DNA from: Eledone cirrhosa
Taxonomy: Eukaryota
Length of the DNA: 64,000 nt
Reading direction: 5' to 3'
NCBI GenBank assembly: GCA_964016885.1
Contig: OZ024742.1
Location: 219,604,001-219,668,000 of the forward strand
In this document: piece by piece, positions 13,995 through 46,009 of the stretch
Layout: each line of letters opens with the position of its first letter
Position numbering within the stretch: the first letter of the stretch is position 1
The notes under the pieces: model-generated
Seen by the model: the letters and a program-made list of their open reading frames with translations, nothing else
Databases searched by the model: none
Told to the model about the DNA's origin: nothing
Position numbers and translations under genes: made by a program

Positions 13995-14657
13995 ATGTCT
14001 GATTCCACAAGCCTCATCTTTGGAAGTTCCCGGTCCTGTCCATTTTGCCAAAGAGTCTGGATTGCTCTTTTGGAGAAAGTTATTCCTTTTAAATATGAGG
14101 AAATTGATCCTGATAACAAGACAGACCAATATTTAAAATTAAATCCAAGAGGCTCTGTGCCAATAATTATACATGATGGTAAGGTTATATATGAGTCAAG
14201 TATATGTATGGAATACATTGATGATGCTTGGCCACAAAATCCCAAAATGATGATGGAAAAACCTTTTGACAAAGCTCAGGTTCGCATCTGGGGTAACTAT
14301 GCTGCAAATAAAATAATTCCAGTATTTTTTTCCATTCTGAAATCAGATCCTAAAATGCTGGATGAATTAAAGAAATCTTTTGTTGAAAATCTTGGAACTT
14401 TTGTGAAAGCCATGTCCCCAACTGGAAACTTTTTCATGGGGGACACATTTTCATATGTTGAAATGATGCTGTATCCATGGATACAAAGATTACCAGTGTT
14501 AAAACACTATAAAAACTTTGAAATACCATCTGATATTGATTGGTATCCTCGTTTCCAGAAGTGGTCCACTGCTTGTTCTGAGAGGAGAAGTGTGAAGCCT
14601 ACTGTTGTTGATATTAAGGAATTGATCCCAGGTTTTGAAAAATATGTGAAAAAATAA
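13995..14657 (+). CDS. Glutathione S-transferase, Cys-type (omega/DHAR-like, CPFC active site), 220 aa, copy A
   Basis: CPFCQRV, LNPRGSVP (cis-Pro), YESSI..EYIDDAWP and a GST C-terminal domain (FFMGDTFSYVE...PW..RL). The ORF-track start at 13953 lies in the polypyrimidine tract; the likely true ATG is 13995. AATAAA at 14802. Confidence 0.93.
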   Translation: MSDSTSLIFGSSRSCPFCQRVWIALLEKVIPFKYEEIDPDNKTDQYLKLNPRGSVPIIIHDGKVIYESSICMEYIDDAWPQNPKMMMEKPFDKAQVRIWGNYAANKIIPVFFSILKSDPKMLDELKKSFVENLGTFVKAMSPTGNFFMGDTFSYVEMMLYPWIQRLPVLKHYKNFEIPSDIDWYPRFQKWSTACSERRSVKPTVVDIKELIPGFEKYVKK

Positions 14658-16199
14658 GTTGTCAAAGGAATACACTAATGAGAATTTTAAAATCATAATT
14701 CATATTGAACACAATATTTTATGAATTATATTTTTAATAGAACCTTGTATGTTTTATTTTATTTCTTTGCATTTTTTCCAAATTATGTAACTAAAATAGG
14801 AAATAAATATTTGAGAAGTATCTAAAAATTGTTTTGTAAATTTGCAATAAATTTAAAATTTTCCAACTTTGGAACCACCTGGTTCTTAGCTCCATCCCAT
14901 TGCAATTGTTTTCTGCTATAGCCTGGGGACAAATAATGTCTCCAGCATGATAGGTAGAAGCCCATTACATACATATATATATATATATATATATGTGTAT
15001 ATATATATATATGTCTTTCCTGATGATTTCTCATGAATGAAACAATTCTAGTTCCGTAGAAGTAATTTCTATATTAATGTATTGAATATCTTTTTTTAAC
15101 TGTGGTTACCTCCTGTGGATACATCAGGAATCCACCTATGTATATATGTGTGTGTGTGAATTTTGTATATCTCATGATATGCAGTATGTTTTCAAATAAA
15201 CATTTGGAAAGCTTTCTATTGAAAAGCTGACAACTAGCGCCATCTTGCGGATTCCAGCAGAAGTAGTGGGTGACAACTGCCAATGCATTTCTGGCTCTAG
15301 TCATCACAAGGACAGTGCTTCCCCACTCTCTGCTAGAATTTGAACAGGTGAAAATATATAGTCTTTTCACCTATGTAGATGGGCTGATTAGCCTCATTTG
15401 CATATGGAGCTGTACAAGCTGGCTCAGCTTGAAAGTGGAATTTAAGTTTTTGCTCCAACATAACTAATACATACAAATTTGTGAATTTCATAATGATATG
15501 CGGTATGTTTACAAATAAACATTTGGAAAGCCTTCTAGTTATGAATATTGAAAAGCTGACATCTAGTGCTGTCTAGTGGATTCAAACAGAAGTATTCCTA
15601 TCTAGGTGATCTCATCAGCAGCATGAGTGAATGTATCGAAATGTTGTCTTGTTCATATGTTACAATTTTGGGTTTGGTTTTTACGGCTGGATGCCTTTCC
15701 TAATAGCAACCACTTCACAGTGTGTACTGAGAGCATTTTATCATGATTCTGGCACTACCACCTTACAGGGTGGGCTGGGTGCTTTTGTCATGGCACAACT
15801 GCCTTACAGTTAGATCTCGTGCTTTTCATGATGGCACTACCACTTTACAAAGTGAGCTGGGTGCATTTTTGCATTTTTATCATAGAACCATCACGGAAGA
15901 GCTGTTGATATGGGATGGGGGTTATACTGCCATGGAAGAGGAAGTGTCAGGCTATGGAGAGAGAATTGTATCTAGTGGTATATTGTGAGGTGTGCCTGGC
16001 TTTCCATACTAGCATGAGATGGACAAGGAAGTGAATCAGGTATGCAGACATGACTTGTGCCAGGAACATGAATTGGGTATGTGGTAGTGTGGGAGGGGGG
16101 ATTTCTGTCGTCTTTCTGTTTTAACATGAATTAAATAGGGGAAGTGGGGAGGTGAAGAATGTGGATAGGTGGGTTGATTTTGTCTACCTCTCTCTTTGC

Positions 16200-16400
16200 T
16201 TTCATTTCACTATACTTGTCTGGGATGCCAAGTTTTCTGTGATACAGCATGTCTCCAGGTGATTCAATCCTGTGTCATCTCCTTCAATTAGTTTCAGCTT
16301 TGTGAGGTCAGCCTTTACTACATTATCCCAAGTTTCCCTAGGTCTACCTCTTACCCAGTTTGACATCACTACCAAGCCTTGGATATTTTTTACTTGTGCC
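16200..16400 (-). mobile_element. RTE-like LINE 3' end fragment
   Basis: RGRPRETWDNVVKADL motif typical of the RTE ORF C-terminus. Paralog at about 47557-47760. Confidence 0.55.
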
Positions 16401-16774
16401 CATTCTACTGCAAAAATTTGGGCCAGGTTTCTGGTTTGAAGATACCTTTCCCACTCTCTCACACCAGCCTCAGAAGCCCTGGAAAGGGTCTGTGCACTGC
16501 CCTTCCATCTCTGACTAGACAGCCAAAACTGACTTTGGTTCTATGAAACAAAAATATCCATTTTGAAGGGTTTGTATTTAAATTTAAATCTGCCAACATA
16601 ATTTTATAAGTACCATATATTAACTTAGTAATGAATAATGTAATTAGTTAATTAGTTACAGGCTTCCAGTAAAACAATCACTGGATTATTGCACTTCTAA
16701 AAACCAGAATGACAAAGGAGTAACTGTAACTGGATGCAGAAAAATAAAGTATATATTTCTTTTAAATGAAATTA

Positions 16775-16960
16775 ATTGTTTCTACGTTTGGCACAAGGCC
16801 AGCAAATACCCAGTGCATTACTGGTACTTTATTCTATCGACCCCGTAAGGATGAAATGCAAAGTTAACCTCGGCGGGATTTGAACTCAGACGATAAAGGA
16901 CTAACTCTATGCTGCAAAGCATGGTGTCCGACTCTCTACTGATACTGCCAATCCACCGCC
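16775..16960 (-). mobile_element. tRNA-derived SINE
   Basis: B-box-like gagttcaaatccc on the minus strand; multi-copy in the window (29877, 31428, 42023, 48132, 57374, 58924). Confidence 0.8.
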
Positions 16961-17726
16961 CTATCTTTTAAATGAAATTAATAACACAGAGAAATAACTG
17001 TTTAACAAAGGGTGATAACTATAAACAACGTGTTTATTAGACAACTGATGATAGTAATGGAGTACAAGATACCATTGTCATGTGAAAAGTAGCTGTTGTA
17101 TATATTGAAAGGATCCAGGTCAAGTAATTGATACTGTATACTTTGTCCAGATGATGGGTGCACAAAAAGTGTAGTGAGAAATCTATCAAGTTGACTGAAA
17201 AGTAGGGATGTGATAGGTGTACAGGAATAGCTGGTACACTGACAGAGAAGTAGTAGAGATGTGGTAAACATACAGGAGTATGTAACAGAAGGAACACACA
17301 TGAAATAAAAGGATTAACATGTGTCTAGATGAGAGTCTGTACGTATGCATGTATATATGTTAACATACAGACATGCAATATAAGCATACACACACATAGA
17401 TATACATTATATTCCTATTCATTATGAGTGTGTCATATATCATCTCCATTTAACGTCAATTCTTCCATGCTAGCATGGGTTAGATGAGTTGTCCTATTGT
17501 GGGCAATGCCAGGTGAGGTCACCTTGTCTTGCTCATACAGAACTGATTTCGGCTTGATTTCTATATAGGAGTAGTACTAAGCCACATCTCAGGTAATATC
17601 AAAATACAATCACACGAATTCACTATATTACAGTTTGATGACAATCTTTAGTTGTTCCAGGAGTGTTGCAATCCTGAAAATTGTTTCGGCCAAGTAATTC
17701 AGAATTAGCATGAATTAATATATATA

Positions 17727-17865
17727 TGGAGGCACATGGCTTAGTGGTTAGAGCATTGGCTTTGCAATCGAAAGGTTGTGAGTTCAATTCTCAGACCGGG
17801 TGATGTGTTGTTTCCTTGAGCAAGGCACTTTATTTCACATTGCTCCAGTTTACTCAGCTGTAGAA
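17727..17865 (+). mobile_element. tRNA-headed SINE, second family
   Basis: A box tggcttagtgg, B box gagttcaattc, body ccttgagcaaggcactt. Relatives at 34043, 49078, 61540 and about 12800-12950 (-). Confidence 0.7.
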
Positions 17866-18606
17866 ATGAGATGATAGGGATTGGGGTCCCTATCATTCCA
17901 CTGGAAAGTGGTCGTGGAGGTGCCACGGCTAAAAAGCACCCAGCGCTCACTGTAAATGAGGTTGATGTTAGGAAGGGCATCTAGCTGTAGAAATCAAGCC
18001 AGTATCAGTTCCCGTCCCACCCTTGCCAGCAGGGAAAAAGCGGACATAAAATGAAATGATGAATGAAATGATATAAAACGTAAAAAGCACTTAAGATGTG
18101 TGCCTATCCAAGATTTTAGTTACCTCAGTCTAAAACTGCATAGGTTTTTACAATCACTTTTACATATTGAGATACATACATGCATTTATCGCTCCCTTTC
18201 TCTTTCACACACACACATATATATACACATACTCATTAAAACAACATGGATGATTTGCTAACGTTGAGTGCTTTATTTAATTTCTTACATCAGCATTCAA
18301 CAAACCAAACCACCAATTCTACTCATTGATAAACAGCTTAACATAAATTATATATATATTCCATGATTTTTTGTTCACGATCGCCTGTGTCATTACCTTT
18401 ATGATATTTCTATGAATTTTTGTTCACGATCGCCTGTGTTATTACCTTTATGATTTTTTGTCTTTAATTTTCCGGTGTTTACTCCCTCCCTACGTTTTTC
18501 TGGTTCCTTTCCCATCCCCGTCTCTGCCTATCCTTCGCACTTACCCCTTCGTTCACTCCACCCCGCCCTCTCTTCTCCCCCCCCCCGCTTTCACCCAACG
18601 CCCATC

Positions 18607-21409
18607 ATGGCCAACCTGAGATCCTTTCTCCACCAACTCCACAATCGCCTCAAACTTTTCCTCACCCCCCTCCTTCCACCCTGCTATCTCCCCTCCGCCC
18701 TTCAACTCTCCTACCTTCTCTTCGCCAAAACCCGGCACTCCAGCCACATCCATTTCCTCAGCCACTGCCTCCGCCTCCACCTTATCCCCCTTGGCTTCCG
18801 TCTACACTTCCACCCCTCCCCCGCTGCCTCCCCCTCCGCGCAACGTATCCTCACCCGATCCTCACGCCTTCTGATGCGCAACTCCATCCGCGCCTCCCGC
18901 TCCACCCTCCGCCTACTTGACCACCAACTGACCCCCACCCTCCTCCGCCTTTACTCCACCTGCCACCCCCTCCTCGCCCAAGCCATCCTCTCCTTCATCC
19001 ACAACCTCAACCACAACCTCTTCTCGTTCCTCAGCTCCACCAAAGCCCGCAAGCTACACCCCCCCCCCCCCCCCCATCCACCACCACCCGCCCATCCCCA
19101 TACGCCCACCACTCCCCACCTCTCCCCCGACCGCCACCCCCACCCAATCTCCACCCCTCACCACACCCTCCCTTCCCTCCCCTAACACCCAAACCCCACC
19201 CCTTGTTGTCACCATACCCCCTGACCTCCCCCTCTCCGCACCTGAGCGCTCACTCCTTAGTAGAGGCCTTCGCTTCATACCCCACGCTCCGCTCAGCGAC
19301 GAGTTCCGCACCCGAACGGAAGTCGAGCGATTCGTGCGACGCACTAAGCTACAGGCACATTTCGGTCAAACGCCACCGGCTCCGGACGCCCCAGACCCGT
19401 TTCTCGCCCTGGGCCGACGACCATCTTCTTGGACGCCGGCCCCAGGGCAATTTAGCACCCTGGACGCCTTCGTCGATGCCAGCCGTAGCGCAGTAAATCG
19501 TTTCGACTTCCGCCACCGTTCCAAACGGCACAACATCTCACGGTGCGAACTCCTCGCTCTCCGCTCCCTCCGTAGCCGAGATGACATCGTCATCAAACCG
19601 GCGGACAAGGGAGGCGCCGTGGTGGTATGGCGCGCGGACCTCTACAGGGCCGAAGCCCTCAGGCAGCTCTGTAACCCCCTCTTTTACCGCCCTCTACCCT
19701 CCGATCCCACCCCCCTCTACCAACAACAAGTCTCCTCCACCATCAAAGACCTTATCGCCTCCTCCCTCCTCCCCCCACCGCTTCCCACCTCATCGTCCGC
19801 ACACCCCGCACCCCCACCATCTACTTCCTCCCCAAACTCCACAAACCCGACAACCCCGGCCGTCCCATCGTCTCCGCTTGCAACTGCCCCACCGAACTCA
19901 TCTCCGCCTTTCTCGACTCCCTCCTCGCCCCCCTTGTCACCACCCTCCCCTCCCACATCTCTGACACCAACCACGCCCTGCGCCTTTTCGACTCCTTCAC
20001 CTACCTACCCGGCCCTCAGCCATTCCTCTTCACCCTAGACATCAAGTCCCTCTACACCGTCATCCTCCACGCCGACGGCCTTCGCGCCCTCAAACACTAC
20101 CTCGACCTTCGCCCCTCCCCCATTCCCTCCACCCCACCCTCCTTCGCCTCGCCGAGCTGGTCTTCACCCTAAATTGTTTCTCCTTCTCGGGTGAGTTTTA
20201 CCAACAGGTCACGGGGGTAGCCATGGGCACAAGAATGGGCCCGAACTATGCCAACCTTTTTGTTGGCCATGTTGAGGCCCAAATCTTTGCCCAGTACACC
20301 GGCCCCACGCCCGAACTGTACGGTCGTTACATTGACGACTGTATCGGAGCCACGACCCTCACCCGAGTACAGCTCGACTCCTTTCTCTCCTTCTTCTGCT
20401 CCTTCCACCCCTCCCTCCACTTCACCACCTCTATCTCCACCACCCACGTCCACTTCTTGGACATCTCCGTCGCCTTCGACCCCTCCCACCACTCCCTCGT
20501 CACCTCCGCCTTCTTCAAACCCACCGACTCCCACTCTTACCTCGACTTCACCTCTTCCCACCCCAGCCACACTAAACTATCCATTCCCTACTCCCAACTT
20601 CTCAGGATCCGCCGCCTCTGTAGCCGAGATGCTGACTTCGAGTCCCAGGCCCTTTCCCTAGTCAGCCATTTCATCCGCAGAGGTTACCCCCCCCCCCCCC
20701 CCCCTCTCTCGTCCACACCGCTCTCACCCGCGCCCGTGCTATCCCCCGCTCTACCACCCTCACCCCACGCCACCGCACACCCACCCACCGTCTCCCCTTC
20801 CCCATCACCTACCACCCCTCCACCTTACCCCTCCACCGCACCATCCGCCGCCTCTTCCGACACCTCCAGTCCGACCCCTCCACCTCCCACATCTTCCCAA
20901 CCCCACCACTCCCCTCCTTCATACGCGCACGCAATCTCCGCACCCTCCTCGTCCACAGCTCCCTACCCCCCAACCCACGCTCCGTTTCCCCCCCCGGTTC
21001 CTTCCCCTGTTCTAGGCCCCGCTGCAACACCTGTCCCCACATCACCAACACCACCACCTTCCAGGGTCCCAACGGCCACCCTCTCTCGGTCCGGCATGCC
21101 TTCCGCTGCACCTCCTCCAACCTAGTCTACGGACTTCGTTGCACGAGGTGCAGCGCGACTTATGTCGGACAGACGGGACGCCGCCTGGCGGACCGAGTCA
21201 CGGAGCACCTCCGGGACATTCGTCTCGGGGGCAGTTCCCCCATCGCCCGCCACTTTGGTGGCCCTGGACACTCCGCACACCATCTCACAGTCTGTGGCCT
21301 ACTCCAGTGCCACGGAACACCCGCCCATCGCCTCACGGTCGAACAACGTACTATCTTCATCTTACAGACCCACCCCCCCGGCCTGAACTCCCCACCCTTA
21401 TTCCTTTAG
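18607..21409 (+). CDS. PLE polyprotein (RT + GIY-YIG endonuclease), broken by frameshifts at C-runs
   Basis: MANLRSFL..., IKPADKGGAVVVW, LPKLHKPDNPGRPIVS, TLDIKSLYT, GVAMGTRMGPNYANLF, RYIDD, FLDI, CSRPRCNTC, NLVYGLRCTRCSATYVGQTGRRLADRVTEH, GLNSPPLFL*. Confidence 0.85.
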
Positions 21410-21864
21410 CGTTCGACCGCCCCCCTCCCCCACTTATCCCCCACTAACACACCCCTCCTTTTCACCGCCCACCCCACACTAACAATACTAACACCCCCAC
21501 TCCACCCCTCATCTAACCACCCTTCCCCAACTAACATACTAACATCCCTTCCCTCCCCTCTTCCACCCCCCCTCCTTATCACACGCACACACTTACACCA
21601 CCCACCCCACACGCAACTAACATCACTAACACCCTCCAACCCTACGCACACGTACCCACACACCCTCGTACACCACCAACTCTACACACCCTACCCCCAC
21701 TCACACCTGCATTCCACCCCTCCCCACCTCCCGTCTACTAACACCCACTAACACCTCCTCACCAAACTACACACACACCAGTACACCACACTCCCTCCAT
21801 AGAACCACACACACCCTTCTCTCCCCACTCCACACTCACTCATCCCACTAACACCCCTACTAAT

Positions 21865-21895
<31 letters not shown>

Positions 21896-22728
21896 CCTCA
21901 CTCCAACTCTCACACCTACCCATCCTCGCCTCCCTACCATTCCGCTGACTGCTGCTATGCCCTTCCGACCACTGTCTCAGCACCAACTGACCACAGCACT
22001 TCCACTGCTGACCACTTCCTGTTGCGCGCGCACCCCACATCTCTCCTCTTCCGACCACCGCTTCTTGGATTACCCACACGCGTTTTGACTTCCAACCAAA
22101 ATCTCCATACATCCGTGTAACTTACCACTTTTCAACCATCCTCTAACACCATCACCTATATAACTCACCCACACACACATCCCCAAACAAATTTTTTTAT
22201 CCACACGCCACCCACACCCACAACACGCTTAAACCACACACACGTGCTTCCCACCACATATTTACACCCTCAGCCCCCTGATTCCTCTCCCCCCACCCCC
22301 TATGCACACACGCACAGACCCTCCGACACACAAAAACACCCCCCACACACACCTTCCTGAACATGCAACCCCGTTCTTCCCGCAACCCTCACTTTCACAT
22401 ACACACACACACACACACACGCACACCTAACCACACACACCACCTTCAGCCCTCCTCGCTCGGACACCCCGTCTCCCTCTCCCCACTCCACCCGCCTCCA
22501 CCTCTACTCACCCCACACCCTTCCACCACCTGTTTACCCCCCTTTTAATTTCAGTTTATTTTGATCATGCCTTTATTTTTAAATGTTCTCATTCCTTGTA
22601 TTTTGATCATGCTTTATTTTTATTTATTATTTATTATATTTTTGTCTTTATTTGTTAATTTTTCATTCGCACCGTTTCCTTTCGCTATATGTCTCTCCAC
22701 CACTCCCCTACACACCTTTTGAACTCTT

Positions 22729-22760
22729 ACCTGAAGAAGGGCTTATGCCCGAAACGTCGT
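22729..22760 (+). ncRNA. Minimal hammerhead ribozyme in the PLE 3' region
   Basis: ac-CTGAAGA-a-gggc/ttat/gccc-GAAA-cg-TC-gt: intact core, 4-bp stem II, palindromic ACGT stem III. PLE-associated minimal hammerheads are established. Confidence 0.8.
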
Positions 22761-22837
22761 CCCCCACTCTCCTGAGCGTGAATCTAATGAACATTTGTCG
22801 TACTGCCTCTCTGTTCTGTCCCTGTTCAATTTTTTAT

Positions 22838-22885
<48 letters not shown>

Positions 22886-23769
22886 GAATGTTGGAAGATT
22901 AAGGATTTCTATACAAATCGTGTTATTTTGAAAAATAAAGATTTGAAAAAAGCACCTAATTTGTTTTTATTCATTATATATACATGCTCCGTATATAGTA
23001 CACAATGAAAAAATGTTTCATATAAAAAAAGGATAGTTTTTGTACTTAACCAGCTTTTCAAAAGTCTTCGCATGTCTAAGTTTTCATTTGTAACGGGTTT
23101 GTTAAAACAAGGGGCGCAGCTGGTTATATCATTGCCCCATATGTTGAGGAAAACGCAATCCTTCACAAGGGACGTAATACTGCTCTGACCAGGTATTAAA
23201 ATTATGTATGCAAGAGTTCGGCCTAAATTTTATTTATAAAAAACTTTTCTTTGCCAATGCACTTTTCCTCTGATGTCGACTGGCAACATTGGTAGAATGG
23301 GAAGACATTGACATTAGGTAAAGTTTGTGTATGGATGTATTAATGGATGATATCGGTGTGTGTATTTGAGTGTTTATGCATTTATTCGTGTGTGTGTTTA
23401 TGCATGTCTGTGAATAAGCTTGTATCTCTGTGTGTGTATATATACCAAATAACAGATGTATTCACAACTTGTGATCAAAGAGTACAATGGAGTATATCAG
23501 TCAGTTGTCTGTGCTATATCAGGAAGTAGCCAAATCGACAAAGTGGGTGGTGGGATGGAGTATATATTACAGAAAGAGTGGATTAAGGTGTGGAGACACT
23601 GGAGAGGGAAGTAAGAGTGGTTTCAGGGTCACTGTGTTGTGTCTGCAGTGGTGGTTAGTTGATGAAGTTCTTTTTTTGACAGACTGAATTCCATTTTGTA
23701 CATGTAAATACAATTTTTGCAGACCATAATCAGGGACACCCACTGCAAACAGCCACCCCACCTTGCAGG

Positions 23770-24030
23770 GCTCCTCAATTCTACGAAGGTCAGCTGTACA
23801 GAGTCCAAGGACACCTGAGGTTTCAACAGCAATCAATGCAAAGAGGAAGCAGCTGAACAAGCCCCAGTATTTGCTTATTTTCCTGTCCTTTGCGTTACAG
23901 GCAGTGGTAACGAGGTTTGTGGTCAAAGCGATTAAGTTGGAGGTGGCGACCATGTCACGTCCTAGATAAGGGATTTACCTCCCTCAAATGGGAAGAGGAT
24001 AATTCCATCGGGGCGCTTGCCATCTCCACA
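23770..24030 (-). mobile_element. Old CRE-type endonuclease fragment
   Basis: RPDGIILFPFEGGKSLI*DVT...KISKY...IAVETSGVLG. Paralog at about 50640-50900. Confidence 0.65.
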
Positions 24031-24369
24031 CTCAACACTTTCTGGCTCCAGTTGTAATGAGAAACCAGCTGCATCTAGGCTCCTTCTCATTATGTCATTC
24101 TGGTTTACATTAATTAGTCAGTTGAGTTAGTTTAGAAGTGTTAGGTATTTAGCTACATTGGTTTAGTTAATTGACTGTGTTAGTATAGTTAGTTGGTTGT
24201 ATCAGTATAATTAATTAGTCATGTTAGTTTAATTATATTTATGTATCTATGGTCATGTTGGTATAACTAATAAATTAGTTGTGTCGGTGAAAGTAGTCAT
24301 ATGGTGCTGGGAGCAGTGTATGTGTGATGATGTGAGTGTCGATAGGAGGTGGAAAAGAGCTGACTAAAG

Positions 24370-25545
24370 GAAGAGGGGCAGTGCATTTAGGCCATTTCCA
24401 GTAAAGGTTTGAAGAGACAAAGCAATATGCTGTGCTCTCCTGAGATATATGTTTGGGGTTCCGTGGCAAGCAACGAGGCCGAAAACTGAGAGGTGGTAGG
24501 TGGAATGTCCAGCAGAGTGGAAATGTTAGGCAACCGGAGACTGGTTGCCGAGCCAAGTATCCTGAAGATGCTCAGCAAACCTCTCCACTAGTCAACAACC
24601 AGTTTGTCCAATGTATGTGGCCTCATATAACATGCAACACAGCCTGTAGACAAGACTCATTGGGGTGCAGCAGGAGTCCCTAACTAGGAAGAACTGGCCG
24701 TTGGGACCAGTGAGTTGACAGAAGAGAACAGCGGCGAGGAGATGTTGGAAGTTGTGCACGCTTGAAGGAGAGGTTGGGGGGAAAATGGGGTTAGTGGAAG
24801 GGTTTGACAAGAGACGGAGGATCATCTCTAGCGAAGCAAAATGAGGATGGTGGCTCACCAAGTGAACAATCTAGCCATGTAATGAGCCTATGTTTTAAAA
24901 TCATGGGTCCTACTACACAGGCTGTGGAGGTAGAGGAATTGGGAGTAGGGGATGGAGTCGTTGAAGAAAGTGGAGATGAGGGAATGACAAGAAGTGGCAA
25001 TGCAGACAGATATGTACAGGAAATGGATGGAAGTGGTGGAGATAGAGGCAGTGAAGTTGAGGGCAGAGTGGAAGGAGCAGAGAAAAGAGAGGAGTCAAGC
25101 TTCTCCCGAATGAGTGAGGGAACACCAATAGTCTTTAATATTATGGCCATATTGCTCAGGGACGGGGCTCAGTTTACTGGGTAAAGATTTGGGCCTCTAT
25201 GTAGCCAATGAATAAGTTGGGGTTGTTGGGATCTATGGCCACCCCAGCTGTGTTGGTAAAACTCACCCGAGAAAGAAAACCAGTTGAGGGTGAGGACCAG
25301 CTCAGCAAGATGGATGAAGGTCGTGGAAGTGTTAGCGAGCACAGAGGCCTTCAGCATGGAAGAATATATGTCAATTGTGAAAAGGAGATGGGGGGGGGGG
25401 GGGGCAGGAGGGAAGACGAAAAGTTGGTGTCAGATGTGGGAGGGGAGAACAGCTACTAGGTGTGTAAGTATGGAGTTAAGGTAGGTGGAGAGGAGTTTGG
25501 TGGGGCAGCCAGGGGTGTTAGGTTTGTGTATTTTGTGGAGGAAGT
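24370..25545 (-). mobile_element. Degenerate Penelope-like element related to the 18360-22835 family
   Basis: HLAELVLTLNWFSFSGEFYQ, LVYRLCCMLYEATYIGQTG and GLNALPLFL match the young copy, with many stops and frameshifts. Confidence 0.8.
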
Positions 25546-26300
25546 ATTGGCTTTGCTGTGATGACCCGTCTGCTGTCTATACTGAATAAGAAGTAGTGAG
25601 CAGCTCATGTTAGTTCATATTCCCCTTGTAAATAACCATTATGTCATGTTACTGAGTGCCCAAGAACCAACTTTACCTTCTCACAGTTAAGACAAAGTTT
25701 GCTTCTTATCAATCAGATTAAAATACCCAAACAAGACGAAGTCATTGCAAGGAGTGATTTTATTGTGAGAACAAGAACAAACTAAAAATCTAAAAATGAA
25801 TGATAAGGAACCACAATGTTAGGAAAACAAATATTTTCTCCTGTTTAACATGGTTTTTCAATGGAAATAACTTTCCACAAATTTCACATCTATAAAGTTT
25901 TGCATCTATGTTTTTCAGTTATGATTAATGAGATTGTGTTTCTGTAAGAATCTTAATGACAAATAGTGAATAATTTGTCACCAGAGTGTGCATGTGGCTA
26001 CATGGCTAAAGCTCAGAAAATATTTGACACAAATATATTTTTCTCCAGTGTCTACATTAAGTAGATTTACTTCGCATAAAATGATTTTCTCACATAATTC
26101 ACATAGAAATAATTACTTTTTCTCCATGAAACACTTGTTTGAGGGGGTGTTTCTCCTCTGAAGACCTTCTGCTGTCTAGTTCTCCTGAGAGTTTCTTACG
26201 ACTATAAACTGGGATTTCTGACATATTTCATCATGATAAATGTTCTCCAATGTGTACTTGTTAGTGGACAATAAATTTAGATTTGTAAGAGAAAGATTTC

Positions 26301-33449: not shown

Positions 33450-33451
<2 letters not shown>

Positions 33452-35186: not shown

Positions 35187-38100
35187 GGAAATAATAAGTG
35201 TTTCACATCTGACTGGTAAAATGACAAGTCAGTCAATCATATTGGTGGCCTCCCCACAGCCCCGGCGGACAGAATGGAGAAGGCGTTTCCCAGAGGACGG
35301 CAAGGGAGACGCGCTGGAAAAGCCATTCCAGCTCGCGAGGCTCACACCTGCGGCTGGCCAGCTCAGCACCTATGGTGGTGCGTAGGGAGGTAGGGCCGAG
35401 GACACCACTGCCAAGGGTACAACTGCAAACCTGTCGGAAAGTGACCGGTATTTGAAGAGTTTCGCCTCCTCAGCCCAATGTGCAGCAGAACCTGGGTTAG
35501 TCGCAGAGTGCACCAGGTTGCGGCTGGAGAAAGTGTCGTGAAAGTGGCATCCCTGACGGGGGGTTTGCCACCGCGGAACGGGAAGATGGTCTTGCCATCT
35601 GGCCTTTGCCATCCCCTCGGTCCAGCTCCACTGGCTCAAGCTGGGACGGGAAGCCTGCAGCTGGCACTGTGGCAACAGGAAAGCAGGTGGAGGCCAAAAG
35701 AGTCCATGGTGGATCCACAACGATATAGGTGTGGCTCGCAGATCCGGAGGCCAAGCCTCAAGGAAACGCCGATATGCAGGCTATTGTTATCCAGCTGCTT
35801 GCCAGTGGAGAAGGAGGGAAGGGCATGGAGCCAGGCACCACTGTGAGCGTTTGGGGGCCACACTAAAACAGGCAAGGCGGTGCTGGTCGAGCTGGCGCGT
35901 GAGTCTGTCTGAAGCCAGGCCGCACTGGATGGCATCCCAAATGCTTTGGGGGGACTTGACGTCAGCAGGGGTGACCTCTACTGGGCTAAGTCCCAGCGGA
36001 TTCCACATCTCACAGGCGGTCTCACGTTCCTTGATCACAGAGGGTTCCATTGTGTTTTGGAGAACCCTGCTGACGAGGATGCGGCATGAGGTTATCAACG
36101 AAAGAAACGCCAGCAAAGCCAGTGAGATCAGGGACCGAAGGCCAAGGCCGCCATACCTGACAGGTAAAGTGGCCTGTTGCCATCCAATGTCGTCGAACCT
36201 GACGTCGCATATCTCCTTGGCTGCTGCTTGGATACAAGTATCGAGGTCAGCGAGGAGAAATGTCTGAGTGTAGCACGGAGTGCTGCAAAGGGTATGGAGG
36301 AGCTTCGGCTGGGTCGCTGGTGATCAAGCCCAGTCGTTTTGTGAGGGTCTGGAGTTGTTGGAGCCTAGACTAGATGGTGGAGTGGATGGCTGGCGGGTGG
36401 ATCGTGGACCAAGGATGAGGACATCCTCTTTGGGGGGGGGGGCGGTCACGGTACCTGGTGGAGAATGGACAGCATGTCCGAGACGGAGGCTGCAAAGCTT
36501 TCAGCATCGAGGCTGACATTCACCACCTCCGACCTGGACGATTTGACCTGGAGGCCGATTCCCGCCAGCGCAGGAACCACCGATTGTAGGTCATGGCAGA
36601 CAGTCTCTACGGGCCCGCTCAATGTAGCATCATCCAGATACCAAACGTTGAGAGGGGCCGTGATACTCCGGGCAATGTGGTCTATACCAAGGACAGATGG
36701 TCCTGGCATATGCAGTTAAAGGCATTCCTCATGTCAAGCTTGACAATGAGGTGCCTGGAGTCCCTGGATGCCGGTTCCAGTGGGCAGCTGTTGAAGAACT
36801 GCCTGGTTGCATGTGCAACCCCCTCACAGCCATCGGTCACGCCGACACCCAGTTGCACTGGACTCCTCACCCAGTTCAGGTGTTATGGACCTGCAGACCA
36901 TCTTGGCAGCCAACCTCCAGAAGACATTGCCCACAGCGATGGGGCGTATGCCACCCTCTTTCTTCCTGAGAGCAGTCAGACTAGCCAAAAAAAAAAGAGG
37001 CCTCGGGCATAAGGGTCCAGGGCGCCATGGATAAGCCTATTGGTGAGTGCCATAATTGCACTCAGAAGGCGGCGCCTAGCCCCAGCAGAGAGGGGGGGAT
37101 AGCAACTCCTTGTGGCTTGGTCGGAGGCCATCAGCACCTCTGCTGCTGCTAGCTGGGAAGGACTTGATGATGGATATTATGTCTGCATCGGAAGCCACAA
37201 GGAGCAAGTGGGGATTGGGTGGGGATATGGGTCTGAGGTCAGCGGGTGGCTCAGGGTGCTTGAGTTGCAGGGTAGCCAGGACCTCCTTGGTGTGTTGGAG
37301 GACAGTGTCCTCTGAGGCAACCACTCTGACTGCGGCCGAGACATCACACATGGTTAATTTAGCGTTTACGTTACGTTCATGCAAATGCTTGGTGCTGGCC
37401 TCAGGGGTGGAGGATTGGGGTCACCCGAGAGTGGGGATGTGGCATCCTTAGGCACACTTGGAATGGGCGCTTGCCCATAGGACGAAACATTGGCCTTGAC
37501 AAAGGCTGCTGTCGACCGGTCGCCTCGGTCAGTGCTAGAGCTGGGGAGGCCGAGAGCGAGTGGGGCGAAATAGAAGAGTTGCTCCCAGTTGTTGGCTCAA
37601 TTGGAGTCCAGGGCGCTCTCAATGAGAAAGTGAGGGCATCGGCTACCAGCACCTGGGCCGCTCTCGGGATCCTGAGTGGGATCTTCCGGAACCGCTTGAG
37701 CCAAGCGATGTTGACCAGCGAGGCTTGGGCGTCAGGCAAGCTCGCTGTCTCTTCTGGTGGTGTGCCAGACGGCTGTGGCTGGGCAGACGAGTGGAAGAGA
37801 CAGTTTCTGCATCTCCCCGATGCGAGGGCACTGGAGGCTCGATGCATGAAGCCAACACAGGTGAGATGGTGGAAGCGGCTGCACCCCGAACAGTTCCGGC
37901 CACTCTTCCATCTGTTCGTGGTGCTGCAAGCAGCATCAGGTGTGAGTGGCTGGTTGTTACCAGCCTAAGTGCTAGGCACAACCGTGTGTGGGTGGAATGG
38001 AAAGTGCTGATAAGAGGGCCTCATAGCTCACCTACATCAGATATGGAGGAGTCAGAAGGCAAGAGTGAACAGAGGGGGTGCATGGAGGGGGACACACAAG

Positions 38101-38290
38101 AAGGTAAAATGTTAGCAAATAAATAAATGAATGGATGAATGTACAAAAAAGAAAACAAGGGGTTGTTCCCAGCGGAAAGACCCAGAGTGCAGCACGCACA
38201 CATGCGAGCATGGTAGCAGTTAATCCATAGAACCTTGTGGCTAAAGGCGAGTCTTTCAATCCTAAAAAGATATGTTGTTGTTATTGTCAC
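35187..38290 (-). mobile_element. CRE-clade non-LTR retrotransposon copy B (about 3.1 kb, internally deleted)
   Basis: RT motifs QLGVGV..GCEG..HA, KLDMRNAFN and NVWYLDD, then AWLHALP..G..LDN..LRLG..C.PH..RCG..D..GLHLLSC zinc knuckle and endonuclease tail (KYRSLSDRFAVVPLAV, GNAFSIL). The RT segment expected to contain QGDP is missing. Candidate TSD TGGCT at 35181 and 38291. Confidence 0.87.
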
Positions 38291-39586
38291 TGGCTCAGGT
38301 CTAAGGTTTCCGTTTTCCAGGAAAAAAAGTCATTTGCGAGCATCTAAAAGGTTAGATTAGTTGATAGCACACGAAATTAAACGAAGAAAAATAACTATTT
38401 CTCAACAATGCGAAAAAAAGGAAAACGAAGTAAAAATATTTTTTTTCCATTGAAATCGAAGGGGCGTGGTGTTTTATAAATTTACCAAACTTTTTCCTAC
38501 TGAAATTGAGGTGGTGTACAATATATTTATCGTCCTATTTGAAAATGGTAGAATAAGGTAATTTGGCTACTATTTCTAGCGGACCAAGCAAGTACGTAAA
38601 GGCGCCTCCGTCTCCTATAATTGTTCATTTGTTTAGTCATTGTCAACGTCAACAATGCCTCTGCAACAGACATAACTCCCAAGCCGCAACTATTTGATTT
38701 ACTACCAAACATTTGTTTGCCACCTAGAATATTTATTTATCCAGTTCTCACGGCTGAGGTTTGTAACTGAAAATTCCAATTAACTATCACGGTAAAGGTC
38801 GATTAATTTTTGATGCACACTGTACATTACGTGAGTATTTAAATATCGACACGAATTCACAAAGGTCCATAACTACGGAAACTTGTTTACTTAATTCCAC
38901 GATCGCAAGGTTAGTAGAATTAAGTTCATATTTCGTATATCTTACTGATATATGATTACATTGAGTTGGGTTCATATTTTAAATAACTTACTACTTTTAT
39001 AACTTCGTTGATGATTAAATAAATATTATCTTTATAACATTATTAAAGTAGTTTATGGTTGGTGTATCATAAATAGATTAATTATACTTAATGGGCGTTA
39101 CCCCTCATCAGGCAGGCAAAATTAGTTTAATTCTTCAATTTTTAAATATATTTTCAATTTTCGGCACTACAACGCTATTAGCTGTCAGTCGTGAAAGCAG
39201 GCGAAGTGGAGTTTCACGCGTTTATTATTTTTTTTTTTTTAAAGCATATCGATGTAAGTGGAGTTACTTAAATGAAAATATAGGTGGCCCTTAAAAGGGC
39301 CAAATTAGAAAACAAATTTAAGTTAATTAGAAAACAAGTCATGGTTATCAAATAAATTGGATTTAATCATTTATATTTTCATAGTCATAGTTATCAATGT
39401 AGAAAACAAGTCATTTTCGCCAACAGTGGAATTACTTCTGAACCATATGACTGGTTTAGTTCTAGTTCTTATCCTCGATTTATTTGACGTATGGGTGTTT
39501 GAATTATAATTATTAGAGTTTCTCTTATATAAGTTATTATTTTTATGAAGATTAATACTTGGATTATTATTATCTACATATTCTAT

Positions 39587-40611
39587 ACCAGATAGAAAAA
39601 TGCGTACAGCAAAAAAAAGTAATATTGTTGGAATATAAACCTTAAAAATACAGGACAAGAAACTAAAATAAAACTTTAAAAGAATAGGACAAGAAACTAA
39701 GATAAATCTTTAAAGAATTGGACAAGAAATAAAAAATTTTACAATAATATTAGTGGCAAAATTTTTATTGGTAAAAAATCGAGTTCCACATTCATAGGCT
39801 CTCGGTTCCACATTCAGAGGTCGTCGTCAGACCGAGGGGATCATTTGATCCTGGTTTGAACACCAATTGGGCCATAACCATACCCCTATTTCATCATTCG
39901 GCGACACGCCTCATGTGTCATGCTTAATGTGAATTGACCCATGGGCCCATGAGCACAGATCTTGAGCAGCAGTGGGCGGTCTTGTCGTCCCGCTCATCCT
40001 TGATCTTGACCAACCCGTCCATCTTCTCCTTGCATCTTGTCCTTGAGTTCAAGTCCGGCAGTCCAGATGAATGCGTGCCACAGCTTTCTGGTACAGGAAG
40101 GGGGAGCAGGAGGACTGGAGGGATGACGAGACAGAGGGAGGGAGGACCGGTGGTTGAGGGAGGTGCCGTAGTCGGTGGTCAGAGTCGACATCTTGTCCCG
40201 GTCGTCTTCTCCATCTTCGTCTGGTGTTGCGGGACCAGAAGTGCATTCTTGGAAGAGACCTGCAGCTGCATCGGCCAATTCTTCTTGCACTGGTCATTCT
40301 GACGGAGCAGAACTGCTCAGCCAACCAACCCCAACCAGAACCAACCGCTCAGGGGCAACGCACAATGAGAGCATGACAATTATTATGCACTAATCAAGAA
40401 GATACTGGGGCATAGCACAGGAAACGAATAACAAAATTTTGCCACTAATATTATTGTAAAATTTTTTATTTCTTGTCCAATTCTTTAAAGTTTTATCTTA
40501 GTTTCTTGTCCTATTCTTTTAAAGTTTTATTTTAGTTTCTTGTCCTGTATTTTTAAGGTTTATATTCCAACAATATTACTTTTTTTTGCTGTACGCATTT
40601 TTCTATCTGGT
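39587..40611. mobile_element. Non-autonomous TIR element, complete copy (about 1025 bp)
   Basis: Begins accagatagaaaaatgcgtacagc and ends gctgtacgcatttttctatctggt. No clear TSD. Confidence 0.85.
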
Positions 40612-41547
40612 CTACTATTTTTTAAGGCAATGCAAGCAACAACTATCTAATAATTAAAAGATCATAGTGAATTACTGACAAGTGATTGACATTTTAAAGT
40701 TCTTTTGAGTATAATTGCAATCTAGTTGAGGCAACTGGCTTAATGACAAAGCTAGTAAATCATGAATGCATTTGAGATGATTAGTGCATAATAGTGAATT
40801 GGTGAAACTTGTGCATTTCAATGGTGTTACGGATAAAAACTGATACTGCTGTCTACGACCTTTATATAGGATTGTCATGTTTCTCTGTATCTGCAATGTG
40901 GGTATACAAAATAAGAATTATGATATTAACTTTTATTTAAAATCCCAAAAAATGCTGTGCATGAAAACTTCAAAAAGTAATTCTATTTCTATTGATGACC
41001 TCTTAGTTGCTCATACTAATTTTGTAAAAGATTTCAAGCCAATAATCAGAATGATCTGGTATAATTTTTATGCAGATAAATGACTAATTAGTATAAAGGG
41101 CCATCCAGATATCATGTGGACACCGCGAACCAAAAATGGTCACATGATATCTGGATGGCTCCTAAGCATCCCCTCCACATGGCGGGGACATGGGTCATCA
41201 TCGTAGAGCACTCACCTATTTTTAAAATATTAGACTATGATAAATGAATTTAGTTAAAAATACAATTTGAAATATATTAGATTACCTCCCCTCGCGTCAC
41301 GCTTACTACTTTCTCACTTGAACACAAGATTTATCAGCAAACTTTGATTATAAACTTTTTCCCGCTGGACCAAATTTCTAGATTTTTAAGCCAAAAGATG
41401 CATAATGATCTACTGTTCATGCTCATATAAGTTTTATCTCAGTTAAATAAAGCAGAGCCGCGCTGTACTGTCGTAAACAGACGATTGCCAACGAAAACAC
41501 GACCACAACAATATTACTAAACGGACTACCGTCCGTTTAGGATTATT

Positions 41548-41892
41548 CACATTTCCTGCTCTTTTTAACGCGTTGTTGTAGTATTCAGCGTTTTCATCGA
41601 ATATAGCTTTATTGGCTGATATTTTATTAATTCGTTTTTGCACACTATTTACTATAGCTTTTTTTTTTTTTTTTACAGATTTAGGGTGATTGGAATGGTT
41701 ACTAACATAGTTTAAGTTTTCATTGGGCTTATGAAAAGGGTAATAGAAGCCAGTGTTTAAGTTAAACGTAACGTCTAGGAAATTAACTATTTTGGTACCA
41801 TTTTCTACTTCTAACTTAAGGTCGTACGTTTTAAAGAATTCTATTATACTTTTCTTTACTCTATTTAGTTCTATATTGTTGTGTTTGACCAC
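41548..41892 (-). mobile_element. Penelope-like RT fragment (unit B paralog)
   Basis: Same translation as 5480-5824. Confidence 0.85.
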
Positions 41893-42022
41893 CGTAAATA
41901 AAATATATATACTAGACCACCCGTGACTCGTTGGGTCACATTCACTTCAAAATAATAAAAAAAAAATAATGTTCACTTAAAAATAATTTCTAAATAGTTA
42001 AAATATACACAGACATGTATAT

Positions 42023-42203
42023 AATTGTTTCTACTTTTGGCACTAGGCCATCAATTACCCAGTACATTACTGGTACTTTATTTTATCGACCCCGTAAGGA
42101 TGAAAGGCAAAGTTAACCTCGGCGGGATTTGAACTCAGACCGTAAAGGGACGTAACTATGCTGGAAAGCATGGCGTCCGACTCTCTACTGATACTACCAA
42201 TCC
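42023..42203 (-). mobile_element. tRNA-derived SINE, private to unit B
   Basis: Empty site in A at about 5953 (tataatgtgaaatg); AAT is duplicated at the junctions. Confidence 0.85.
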
Positions 42204-42293
42204 AATGTGAAATGAAACTGGAAGGCTCATGTATATCTATATATGTGTGTGTGTATGTATATATATAAATGTCTGTGTATACATGTATATATA

Positions 42294-42690
42294 GGCATAC
42301 GTCAAAACGGCCGGTCTCAAAAGTGAAACTAATTTTTGACAGTTACGTACACGTAATAAGAGTTATTTAAATTTATATTTATAAATTAAAGGAGCAAATA
42401 AGAGCATGATATGAAGTCAGTCATGTGTGTGTAAACGAATGTAAAAGTACACACACACATACACACTATAATATATACACGTGTGTGTGTGAAAAATTCT
42501 AGGAAACCTTATCTATGCCCTACATATATTCTTTTACATTCGTTTACACACACACACACATGACTGACTTCATATCATGCTCTTATTTGCTCCTTTATTT
42601 TATATATATAAATTTAAATAACTCTTATAACGTGTACATTACTGTCAAAAATTAGTTTCACTTTTGAGACCGGCCGTTTTGACGTATGCC
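42294..42690. mobile_element. Foldback MITE (almost wholly palindromic), private to unit B
   Basis: ggcatacgtcaaaacggccggtctcaaaagtgaaactaatttttgacagt and its exact reverse complement ending at 42690; flanked by TA repeats. Confidence 0.88.
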
Positions 42691-45346
42691 GTATATATAT
42701 ATATATGTATGTGTGTATAGTGGGTGTCTGTGATCTATATACAGTAGTCAAGGACACACACACACACACACATATATACACAACACCACCACCAGCTCTC
42801 TCTCTCTCTTCCATTCTCTCTCACAACCACTATCTCTTTCTATCTCTTTGTTTATAAAGGTACCTGGAAAAACCCCATATCTCGAACCCGTGCTCTAATT
42901 TACACGAAACTTGTTTTATTCCATTTGTATTCCCATTTCATGGTCAACTTTCTTTCAAAGTATTTTCCCATTATGTGCCGTTTTGGCTGTATTACATTAC
43001 AGACAAGCAAGCAAGCAATCAGAGTTTTAGTGGTAGTAGTAGTAAACGGCTTCCACTGTATTATGTATTTTTCTCTGAAAGTTCCATCATGATTAATTTA
43101 CATAACCAGTATTGATATACATGTATCGTTGATGTTCATATTTGTGGTGTTATTCAAAATGGAATGTAAATTATTCGATTAATGACTGATATAAATAAGA
43201 ATTGTCTCTAGATTTAGTACAAGGACAGTAATTTGAAGGGAGGGGTAAGTTGATTAAATCGACCCCAGTGTGTTATTGGTTTAATTTATTTTATCAACCC
43301 CGTAGGGATGAAAGGCAAAGCTAACTTCTGCGGGATTTGAACTCAGAACATAAAGGGGCATAACTACAGCTGGATGCTCTTCCTAAGACCAACCATTTTA
43401 ATGAGTGTACTGGATGCATTTTATTTAGGCATCAGTAATTTGTCTATAAAATAGTGATTGATAATAAGAGAAAAAATATGGAAAGGAGGGGTTGAGGGAA
43501 AAGAACAAGAGATAAAAAAAAACCAGCAATGTTAAAATGTATGTTGTGGGAATTGTATAGTAGTGGATATAAAGATAGCCTTGAAAGGTTTGGGCCAACG
43601 CCTTATCTAACGTAATAGCACCACTTGGATATAAGTTAATTATAGAAAGAAATGGCTTACATAATGCAATAGATTGGATATGGAGAGTAATTCTATTGTA
43701 TTTTATCTTATAAAATGTATAATTAATTAATGGTGGTGTAATTTGTAATTCTTCAGTAAAAATGTAAGTTAGTATCAACAGAATGAAATAAGCTCAGAAT
43801 TCCTGTTGCCTGTTAAGTTTGCTTTTATGATTGAATACAGTCCTGCTTTTCTCAGTGATGTATAAATTACAAAAGTTGGCGACTTGATTGTCCCTGTGAG
43901 ATCAATATGATGGTCATTGTGATGTCAGTATAGTTGTCTCTATACTGTCTCAAAAAGAAAAAGAAAAGAAAGTCATGTCTAAACCATGCCAGCATAGGTA
44001 AAAAATGGATGCAAAAACAATGATAATGTAAAAAGTCTGTCTTGAACCTAGAGGTTCATCAGACTGATGGTTATCCTGGTTTCCCTGGCATGAAGTGACT
44101 GAGATTACATGACTTCCCTATGGACAGGACACCAGTTTATCGCACGGTTAAACACTTGGTTTGTGCTGGTGGTCATTTTCAGCTGAGTTTACTGGAGCAA
44201 CATGAAATGATGTGTTTTGTTCAAGAACACAACATACAACTTAGTCCAAGAATCGAACCCATGACATTGAAGGCCACACATTTTTATAAGAGGCAAATAG
44301 TGGAGTGAATTAACCACACTGTATGACTGGTATTTATTTGTCTGACATGGCATAAAAGGAAAATTAAACCATAGCAGGATTTGAACTCTGGATGAAGTAT
44401 TGTGAGATATTTGGCCCATCAATTTATTATTGTTGTTATGTATTTGCTTCCATGTTTATTAGAATTTATTATAATAGCTTATTTAAGCTCAAGAGACAGA
44501 AATACAGTGTGACATGGACAGTATAAAAACTATTTGTTTAATACCAACGAAGTACATATTGACAAAGATATCCTTTCCTCTCCTTTGCTATGCCCACATA
44601 TTCCTGAGAGGGTTGTAAGAGGAGCCTATTGGAGGCAACCATCAAATGATCCAGCTGGACTCCCAAGTGAGACCATCTGAGATTTGGGATGTTATTCAAT
44701 CATCTTGCTCATGGTCTACTTCTTGGTCAGTTGGTTTTGTACATTAAAGCTGTCCTATTATTCTTTTCTTAGATAGTCTAACCATTTTCTGTGATCTCTT
44801 CATGTGAAGAAGTTGCAGCTCTACCTGGAGTAACTTCTTGATCTCAGAGCTATGCACCTTATCAATTAATGTTATTCCAGAGACCCTTCAGAGGACCTCA
44901 TTTCAGCCACTTGTATTATTTTGGTCTACCTAAGATTCATGACCATCGGTAAGGTTGGGTATGAATAATGAATTGAAAATAGTGAGTTTGACTTTTACAC
45001 TTAACTCCTTCCTTCTGATGTCAGAATGCTGAAGCTGGCACATTACTACACCTACTTCTACAATTCTTGCATTTAATTCAGTTTCTTTTTTCCATCACTT
45101 ATGAAAACTGCCCTGAAATACTTGACGTTCAAGAAGCCTATCCCTCAGTCTCATATTCCTGCAGAACCTTCCACAATAAGTCCTGTGACATGCACTTTCG
45201 AGGTTCACAATATTAGCTAAGATCAAATAAGAATTGATCAATTCTAATTAATTTAATAATTTACTGTAGTTAAGACTCAATGTCTTCAGAATTTATCAAT
45301 GGTCTATGAATATTCTTTTTTTTTTTTTTCAGGTTTCATTTTTAAA

Positions 45347-46009
45347 ATGTCTGATTCCACAAGCCTCACCTTTGCAAGTTCCCGGTCCTGTCCATTTTGC
45401 CAAAGAGTCTGGATTGCTCTTTTGGAGAAAGGTATTCCTTTTAAATATGATGAAATTGATCCTGATAACAAGACTGACCAATATTTAAAATTAAATCCAA
45501 GAGGCTCTGTGCCAATGATGATACATGATGGTAAGGTTATATATGAGTCAAGTATATGTATGGAATACATTGATGATGCTTGGCCAAAAAATCCCAAAAT
45601 TATGATGGAAAAACCTTTTGACAAAGCTCAGGTTCGCATCTGGGGTAACTATGCTGCAAATAAAATAATTCCAATATTTTTTTCCATTCTGAAATCAGAT
45701 CCTAAAACGCTGGATGAATTAAAGAAATCTTTTGTTGAAAATCTTGGAACTTTTGTGAAAGCCATGTCCCCAACTGGAAACTTTTTCATGGGGGACACAT
45801 TTTCATATGTTGAAATGATGCTGTATCCATGGATACAAAGATTACCAGTGTTAAAACGCTATAAAAACTTTGAAATACCATCTGATATTGATTGGTATCC
45901 TCGTTTACAGAAGTGGTCCACTGCTTGTTCTGAGAGGAGAAGTGTGAAGCCTACTGTTGTTGATATTGAGAAATTGATCCCAGGTTTTCGAAAATATGTG
46001 AAAAAATAA
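45347..46009 (+). CDS. Glutathione S-transferase, Cys-type (omega/DHAR-like), 220 aa, copy B
   Basis: Intact paralog with 15 aa differences from copy A. Acceptor AG at 45331-45332; AATAAA at 46157. Confidence 0.93.
   Translation: MSDSTSLTFASSRSCPFCQRVWIALLEKGIPFKYDEIDPDNKTDQYLKLNPRGSVPMMIHDGKVIYESSICMEYIDDAWPKNPKIMMEKPFDKAQVRIWGNYAANKIIPIFFSILKSDPKTLDELKKSFVENLGTFVKAMSPTGNFFMGDTFSYVEMMLYPWIQRLPVLKRYKNFEIPSDIDWYPRLQKWSTACSERRSVKPTVVDIEKLIPGFRKYVKK

Follow-up and report, generated by a model that had tools for sequence, protein, structure and literature searches.

Probable positive selection on two intact omega-like glutathione S-transferase copies in a tandem array of the octopod Eledone cirrhosa

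A stretch of 64,000 nucleotides of the Eledone cirrhosa genome (assembly GCA_964016885.1, contig OZ024742.1, positions 219,604,001 to 219,668,000 of the forward strand), called the window below, consists mostly of a tandem segmental duplication, as revealed by self-BLAST. The array has at least three units about 1.1% apart, and each full unit contains one glutathione S-transferase (GST) gene and one C2H2 zinc-finger gene (Table 1). Units B and C are the closest pair, because a three-way comparison over 854 columns contains 17 differences found in A only, as against 5 in B only and 4 in C only. A tblastn search of the window found no GST copy beyond those of units A and B. These two copies differ almost exclusively at sites that change amino acids. 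The interpretation that we favor, with a probability of roughly 60%, is that they are intact, omega-like cysteinyl GSTs of a young octopod array, and that episodic positive selection drives the amino-acid divergence of both.

The family to which the two proteins belong can be described in some detail. The Pfam families GST_N_2, GST_N_3 and GST_C score above cut-off in both copies, which places them in the fold of the cytosolic GST superfamily. Residues K42, V55-P56 and E67-S68 of the glutathione-binding (G) site align to K40, I54-P55 and E66-S67 of the plant tau GST 5AGY, a match by sequence, the geometry of the cis-proline aside. Omega GSTs have an N-terminal extension before strand 1. It is absent from the coding sequence (CDS) of both copies, in which strand 1 begins at residue 7 and residue 9 aligns to residue 26 of GSTO1; an upstream exon could add N-terminal residues in some isoforms. 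Outgroup isoforms with FFKM/FFLKM at the same place support the splice acceptor predicted before the ATG of copy A, and a search for the 5' exon with the N-terminal extensions of outgroup isoforms gave chance hits only. The catalytic Cys of omega GSTs lies in a CPF(A/C/Y) loop (PMC3621891; all papers are cited here from partial text), and both copies carry C15-P16-F17-C18. Tau-class identity was rejected, as Cys15 aligns to Ser13 of 5AGY and there is no catalytic Ser. The helix-6 N-capping motif of cytosolic GSTs has a quasi-invariant Asp (PMC9412104); both copies have E156 instead, and a third paralog, D, known from sequencing contigs, keeps the Asp. By analogy with omega enzymes, a class characterized by thioltransferase, dehydroascorbate reductase or deglutathionylation activity, the proteins would act as deglutathionylases or thioltransferases.

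The closest named relatives are octopod proteins annotated as 'GST U19-like' or 'U20-like' (UniRef: GST omega): XP_014789603 of Octopus bimaculoides, XP_029638876 of O. sinensis, CAI9725932-36 of O. vulgaris and GAB1608439 of Argonauta hians. Like the window copies, they are 220-221 amino acids long, carry the CPF motif and occur in several copies per genome, those of O. vulgaris and O. bimaculoides under adjacent accession numbers. Their identity to the window GSTs is 78% in O. bimaculoides, 70% in O. sinensis and 65-68% in Argonauta. They differ from the window copies in having W-Y/F, Y, L and D where the latter have R13-S14, D40, S54 and E156. The 448-residue annotation CAI9725932 of O. vulgaris contains two GST copies in tandem, and is either the product of gene-model fusion or a protein that truly has two such domains. 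A table of the O. vulgaris ink proteome lists, under 'GST omega', a peptide that matches the U20-like paralogs (PMC10142993); in the accessible part of PMC11431876 nothing specific on the family was found.

The best sequence hit in the PDB is Omega 3C of the fungus Trametes versicolor (6SRB; expectation value 3e-35), which has a CP(F/Y) motif and a template modeling (TM) score of 0.88. It is only 33% identical, however. It retains the N-cap Asp and the W-F pair that precedes the Cys, and it has an extended C-terminus, which is missing from the octopod proteins. The plant tau enzymes GmGSTU4-4 and AtGSTU25 are the top Foldseek matches and the source of the automatic 'U19/U20-like' names, but they are about 30% identical and have the catalytic Ser13 in place of Cys15. 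Profile searches gave expectation values of 1e-79 for fungal Omega 3C, 1e-57 for tau GSTs and 1e-47 for GSTO1. Named members of the family come from molluscs, fungi and algae, and the octopod members are without the C-terminal extension of about 15 residues present in the others. Judged from the alignment and the profile scores, human GSTO1 may be more remote from the family than fungal Omega 3C or the tau GSTs of plants, and the family may form a distinct, under-described class of cysteinyl GSTs. Horizontal transfer into octopods was considered, as fungi and plants supply the top PDB hits, but was rejected as a recent event: homologs from bivalves and gastropods (Haliotis, Lottia, Pinctada, Aplysia and others) rank above the fungal ones. 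Neither sigma GSTs nor the S-crystallins, whose expansion in cephalopods has been described (PMC9068888), appear among the 60 best PDB hits listed or the named homolog hits.

The two CDSs, each of 663 nucleotides, are free of stops and indels and differ by 17 substitutions (2.56%), 16 of them nonsynonymous and one, ACA/ACT in codon 43, synonymous. Fifteen amino acids are changed between A and B: I8T, G10A, V29G, E35D, I57M, I58M, Q81K, M85I, V110I, M121T, H171R, F187L, K208E, E209K and E215R, the last by two nucleotide changes. The same counts, with both reading frames intact, had been given in a preliminary description of this DNA and were reproduced exactly. Divergence along the block that surrounds the CDS is uneven: 0.37% at 11563-13720, 1.85% at 13721-13994, 0% at 14658-14960, 1.48% at 14961-16450, 0% at 16451-17400 and 1.37% at 17401-18359. 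The flanks had been called nearly identical, which is correct for 13141-13700 (one substitution) and 14658-14960 (no substitution, one 3-bp indel) but not elsewhere, as 55 of the 6337 block columns outside the CDS differ (0.87%) and the 271 columns directly before the ATG contain five substitutions and two indels. Over the whole unit 260 of 24340 aligned columns differ (1.07%). The excess of the CDS over its flanks is thus real, though only 2.4-3-fold; its Fisher p is 3e-4 locally and 1.8e-3 unit-wide, and 0.025-0.033 once patchiness is allowed for. Patchy divergence of this kind (0-2.6%) is the trace that gene conversion between tandem units would be expected to leave. An origin of one copy as a retrocopy derived from edited RNA is unsupported, as 6 of the 17 differences are A/G and 8 are transitions.

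Neutral expectations for the two full CDSs were derived from base- and CpG-conditional rates of the non-coding differences of the unit, and the figures that follow depend on the chosen rate model and on flat priors for the ratio of nonsynonymous to synonymous rates (dN/dS). Against an expectation of 4.9 nonsynonymous changes, 1.6 synonymous changes and 0.3 stops, 16, one and none were observed. The nonsynonymous count is 3.3-fold over expectation, with a Poisson p of 6e-5, which becomes 0.004-0.017 under three levels of gamma-distributed heterogeneity of the local rate. The synonymous count, at 0.63 of expectation, is normal, and this speaks against both a mutation hotspot and an old tract brought in by conversion. 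GC bias was rejected as the cause of the low synonymous share, as the expected share stayed at 0.24 under the base- and CpG-conditional rates. The point estimate of dN/dS between A and B is about 5.2; values of 0.3 and 0.5 are rejected with p of 8e-5 and 0.0025, and ordinary purifying selection on the pair is ruled out. The Bayes factor for dN/dS above one over dN/dS equal to one is 13-51 (gamma-distributed local rates, patchy-rate model), and the requirement that no stop or frameshift occur cuts the fully neutral likelihood another 4-5-fold.

The direction of the changes was read from ten octopod relatives and from the contigs of paralog D. T8I, G29V, D35E, M57I, I85M, K209E and the silent site are derived in A, and Q81K, H171R, F187L and E215R are derived in B. 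I58M and G10A are probably B-derived as well, from counts of letters outside the listed rows or from D alone. Positions 110, 121 and 208 received no polarity from the relatives or D. About six nonsynonymous changes are therefore A-derived and five to seven B-derived; the preliminary description had allowed for all changes lying on one unexpressed copy, and outgroup and D polarity place them on both.

The locus is covered by contigs from four sequencing runs of one study (X1-X4). Run X4 is termed RNA-like from its depth pattern only and is not on record as RNA: contigs over the CDS and 3' end have a depth of 92-188 each, as against 0-5 on unique upstream and intron sequence, and upstream of the copy A acceptor the depth falls from 132 to 0-5 outside repeats. 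This run carries D-like and B-like contigs, the latter including B's TAT insertion at 14702. B-type letters occur in contigs at 14017, 14023, 14080, 14099, 14123 and 14165. Among the rows listed, a single contig carries an A-type letter, at position 14165; it belongs to X2 and is about 6 deep. The contigs drop variants.

Paralog D is 90-94% identical to the window copies, with 16 differences from A in 288 nucleotides, 17 in 179 and 18 in 182. It shares G10 with A, and T8, G29, D35 and the letters of codons 43 and 57 with B; over 14169-14273 it is nearly identical to both. It retains Y40, L54 and D156 and carries F12 and V14. The contigs may be chimeric, which makes the phasing of D uncertain. 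Forty of the 82 rows of D differences were listed, with the middle segment almost wholly outside them, and 14 of the 40 (flank sites or A/B sites) were dropped. The remaining 26 D-specific letters divide into 23.5 nonsynonymous and 2.5 synonymous, a skew with p of 0.03-0.09 alone and 0.003-0.011 when pooled with A/B. The D contigs over window positions 14432-14613 (1488-1926 nucleotides long) cease to align at 14613, in codon 207, which suggests that the C-terminal helix or 3' end of D is much more divergent than the remainder.

An AlphaFold2 model built from a 149-sequence alignment has a mean predicted local distance difference test score of 95.5 and replaced an earlier 14-sequence model that scored 63. 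Foldseek matches it to the canonical GST fold, with TM-scores of 0.87-0.89 to tau GSTs and Trametes Omega 3C. The glutathione-binding core, namely C15, P16, F17, K42, V55-P56, E67 and S68, is kept in both copies, so that the proteins would still bind glutathione. When the 48 columns of highest conservation are singled out, just one of the 15 changes lies among them (p 0.11). Copies A and B also share a set of older changes made on their common stem: W13R, F/Y14S, Y40D, L54S, D101N and D156E. Of 147 homologs, 132 have the W at position 13, 130 the Y at position 40 and 122 the L at position 54, while the helix-6 N-cap Asp replaced in D156E is found in all 147. Net charge is +3 in A (isoelectric point 8.5) and +7 in B (9.1), as against -3 to 0 (5.7-6.8) in seven relatives. 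The stem branch of A and B has a length of 0.21 in a tree whose octopod node is unresolved. In relative-rate tests the window lineage is faster in 16 of 16 comparisons, nine of them significant, yet with the safer Argonauta outgroups in only one of eight; an acceleration of the lineage is thus suggestive.

Several observations weigh against positive selection and have to be set beside this evidence. 1) The pattern was selected by visual inspection during a scan. When the alignment outside the CDS is cut into 31 non-overlapping windows of 663 columns, two show at least 17 differences, which puts the p for the total divergence of the CDS, taken by itself, at about 0.03. 2) The exact binomial p for the ratio of nonsynonymous to synonymous changes is 0.056; the preliminary description had a rough value of about 0.07 and called it borderline. 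At 95% (one-sided), dN/dS is bounded from below by 0.97. A ratio of one is therefore not rejected without the flank baseline. 3) The neighboring zinc-finger pair, used as an internal control, is equally skewed, with 19 nonsynonymous changes to one synonymous in 20 differing codons (binomial p 0.025), so the ratio alone is weak evidence in this unit. 4) If, in the two D segments with the best coverage, all remaining letters were taken as synonymous, dN/dS there would be about 1.07, although a value of 0.3 could be rejected even then (p 0.004). 5) No A-type transcript was seen among the rows listed, which is no evidence of silence either. 6) The preliminary description placed several changes on substrate sites, and this does not hold. 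Residue roles from PMC6315187 and PMC9412104 gave 16 positions of the G-site and the substrate (H) site (14, 15, 17, 39, 42, 54, 55, 67, 68, 108, 112, 116, 213, 214, 216 and 217), mapped by alignment to 5AGY, a GST of another class, and not by three-dimensional distances, so that contacts may be missed. None of the 15 A/B changes falls on them, one lies within one residue and three within two (p 0.71). Nor are the 22 stem-type sites significantly enriched at ligand positions (p 0.28-0.49), with five within one residue (p 0.28). 7) Seven of the 15 changed sites are invariant in the ten octopod relatives, among them those of G29V and K209E in A and of H171R and Q81K in B, the same share as 107 of 220 overall. 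The diversifying selection proposed earlier is thus upheld in its amino-acid-specific excess, in the change of both copies and in the exclusion of purifying selection; its aim at the substrate pocket is not, and a ratio above one is not formally shown.

The zinc-finger comparison nevertheless separates the two genes. Six of its 19 nonsynonymous changes lie within 30 nucleotides (codons 252-261), where they degrade the linker consensus in copy A; without this cluster the ratio is 13:1 (p 0.10). Another finger of the same gene was rejected as the source of the cluster, since the nearest has 8-12 mismatches. The zinc-finger pair has nonsynonymous changes at close to the background level (1.35-fold, p 0.12), and the GST excess is greater (p 0.009). 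A lopsided ratio can thus arise in this unit without an excess of nonsynonymous changes, and the signal specific to the GST is nonsynonymous density.

The most serious alternative is that constraint has been relaxed in redundant copies, with dN/dS near one, and that the CDS happens to lie in one of the older tracts of a conversion mosaic; the array would then be drifting, and some copies would decay. The alternation of tracts of 0%, 0.37%, 1.4-1.9% and 2.6%, the start of the raised tract upstream of the ATG, the two control windows, the lack of avoidance of octopod-invariant sites, the 19:1 ratio of a zinc-finger pair of which one copy is frameshifted, and the stem loss of a universal Asp all speak for it. 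To produce the data, it requires at once a 2.6-fold local rate, a synonymous deficit (one as against about four) and freedom from stops and frameshifts, for which the joint p is about 0.001 under the fitted heterogeneity, and it is less likely than a ratio above one by the whole of the Bayes factor given above. No change has touched the catalytic core, the RNA-like run is rich in B-like sequence, and D is skewed in the same way in the rows listed. We regard relaxation as possible but unlikely.

It is also conceivable, though we hold it to be distinctly doubtful, that an omega-like GST has been repurposed in this octopod lineage. The change, on the stem, of an aromatic pocket entrance (W13, F14, Y40, L54) into one of charged and polar residues and of a neutral protein into a basic one, with selection now diversifying the surface charge of the copies (+3, +7) and not the pocket, would point to a new anionic ligand or to a non-enzymatic binding or structural role. 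This would be a second recruitment of a GST class in cephalopods besides the sigma-derived S-crystallins.

Overwriting of one or both CDSs in short tracts, by conversion from an unseen and more distant paralog, is very unlikely. Short exchanges are plausible, as D mixes letters of A and B and is nearly identical to them over one stretch, and E35 in A and A10 in B equal outgroup residues. A donor tract should, however, carry synonymous differences, of which there is one, and the 17 differences cluster in no single part of the CDS and involve both copies; D itself holds the ancestral letter at the readable A/B sites and is not the source of the derived ones. The least probable explanation is an assembly artefact, with A and B as two haplotypes placed in tandem or as consensus errors: a divergence near 1% with insertion differences could suit haplotypes, and A-type letters are scarce in contigs, but a distinct third unit follows unit B, B-type letters occur at six positions, errors would neither favor nonsynonymous sites nor spare the frame, and as alleles the 16:1 ratio would still need explaining. 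Contigs of the unique flank are two to three times as deep as those of D in X1-X3 (19-41 as against 12-13), which, depth being no copy number, is a weak hint at a real multi-copy state.

Under positive selection, it is possible to outline how the divergence might have arisen. The shared ancestor would already have changed the pocket entrance (W13R, F/Y14S, Y40D and L54S) and the N-cap (D156E) when the presence of extra copies lifted the ordinary purifying selection on the gene. New amino-acid variants would then become fixed faster than neutral ones, on both copies, and would probably resist homogenization by gene conversion over the CDS, leaving a local peak of divergence. As the A/B changes lie beside or away from the mapped ligand contacts and the charge is shifted, they might tune electrostatics, stability or partner binding and leave the pocket unrebuilt. 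By analogy with omega GSTs (PMC3621891), the enzymes would remove glutathione from substrates.

The remaining features of the window are differences between the units. Unit A alone has a C-rich insertion of 4.5 kb at 18360-22827, flanked by TA repeats, 3.7 kb downstream of its GST; within it, the open reading frame (ORF) 20223-21125 contains what we take to be a retroelement reverse transcriptase motif, and Pfam gave no hit. Five repeat-derived ORFs matched no Pfam family at cut-off. The units also differ by several kb at 5957-11312 as against 42026-42690, 2.7 kb upstream of the GST start, a difference that may alter the 5' exon or promoter of one GST copy. In unit A, 6056-6960 is repeated at 10316-11328. 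The GC-rich, repeat-derived stretch 660-1400, compared with 36620-37380, has the highest A/B divergence of the unit (26 substitutions, seven at CpG), and its substitutions are mostly A-specific against B and C.

Table 1. Positions in the window of the array units, genes and associated features
Feature	Position	Strand	Description
Unit A	1..35410		Start outside window; extra sequence at 5957-11312 and 18360-22827; self-BLAST, block alignments
GST copy A	13995..14657	+	Single-exon CDS, 220 aa, CPFC cysteinyl omega-like GST; derived I8, V29, E35, I57, M85, E209
Predicted splice acceptor, copy A	13960..13980	+	Polypyrimidine tract and AG, 14 nt before ATG; from sequence
Raised A/B divergence tract	13721..14657		22 substitutions in 934 columns; begins about 270 nt before CDS
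C2H2 zinc-finger ORF, unit A	26301..28187	-	628 aa; internal control
Unit B	35858..62985		About 1.1% from unit A; self-BLAST, block alignments
GST copy B	45347..46009	+	Single-exon CDS, 220 aa; derived K81, R171, L187, R215, probably M58, A10
Predicted splice acceptor, copy B	45313..45332	+	Same type as that of copy A; from sequence
Zinc-finger copy, unit B	53073..55245	-	2-bp insertion near 54677 frameshifts; 249 extra bp (about three fingers); 3-bp deletion
Unit C start (third unit)	62986..64000		Self-BLAST; nearer B than A

Precedents for such a process exist. In the portions of the literature consulted, a tandem GST cluster is under positive selection in Anopheles (GSTE5, PMC3242777), and divergence peaks are kept against gene conversion in opsins (PMC3924837). 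Both resemble the present case in their tandem paralogs, local peak of coding divergence and excess of amino-acid change, but their selected codons lie at the catalytic or functional site, whereas the octopod A/B changes miss the mapped ligand positions and a dN/dS above one is borderline. An abstract-level search, with most subscription journals and supplements outside it, found no paper on selection in the octopod GST family. Insects and plants already provide well-known examples of tandem GSTs under positive selection; the gain here lies in one new case that offers a clean system for tests, and in no new principle.

The case is thus a real, moderately supported instance of a known process. 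If the interpretation is true, the divergence of duplicate genes has been caught at a background distance of about 1%, and, with as few as 15 residues separating two intact enzymes, the changes can be examined one at a time. Notice would also be directed to a type of cysteinyl GST of molluscs and fungi that has been little studied, tandemly amplified in octopods and with its pocket remodeled in this lineage.

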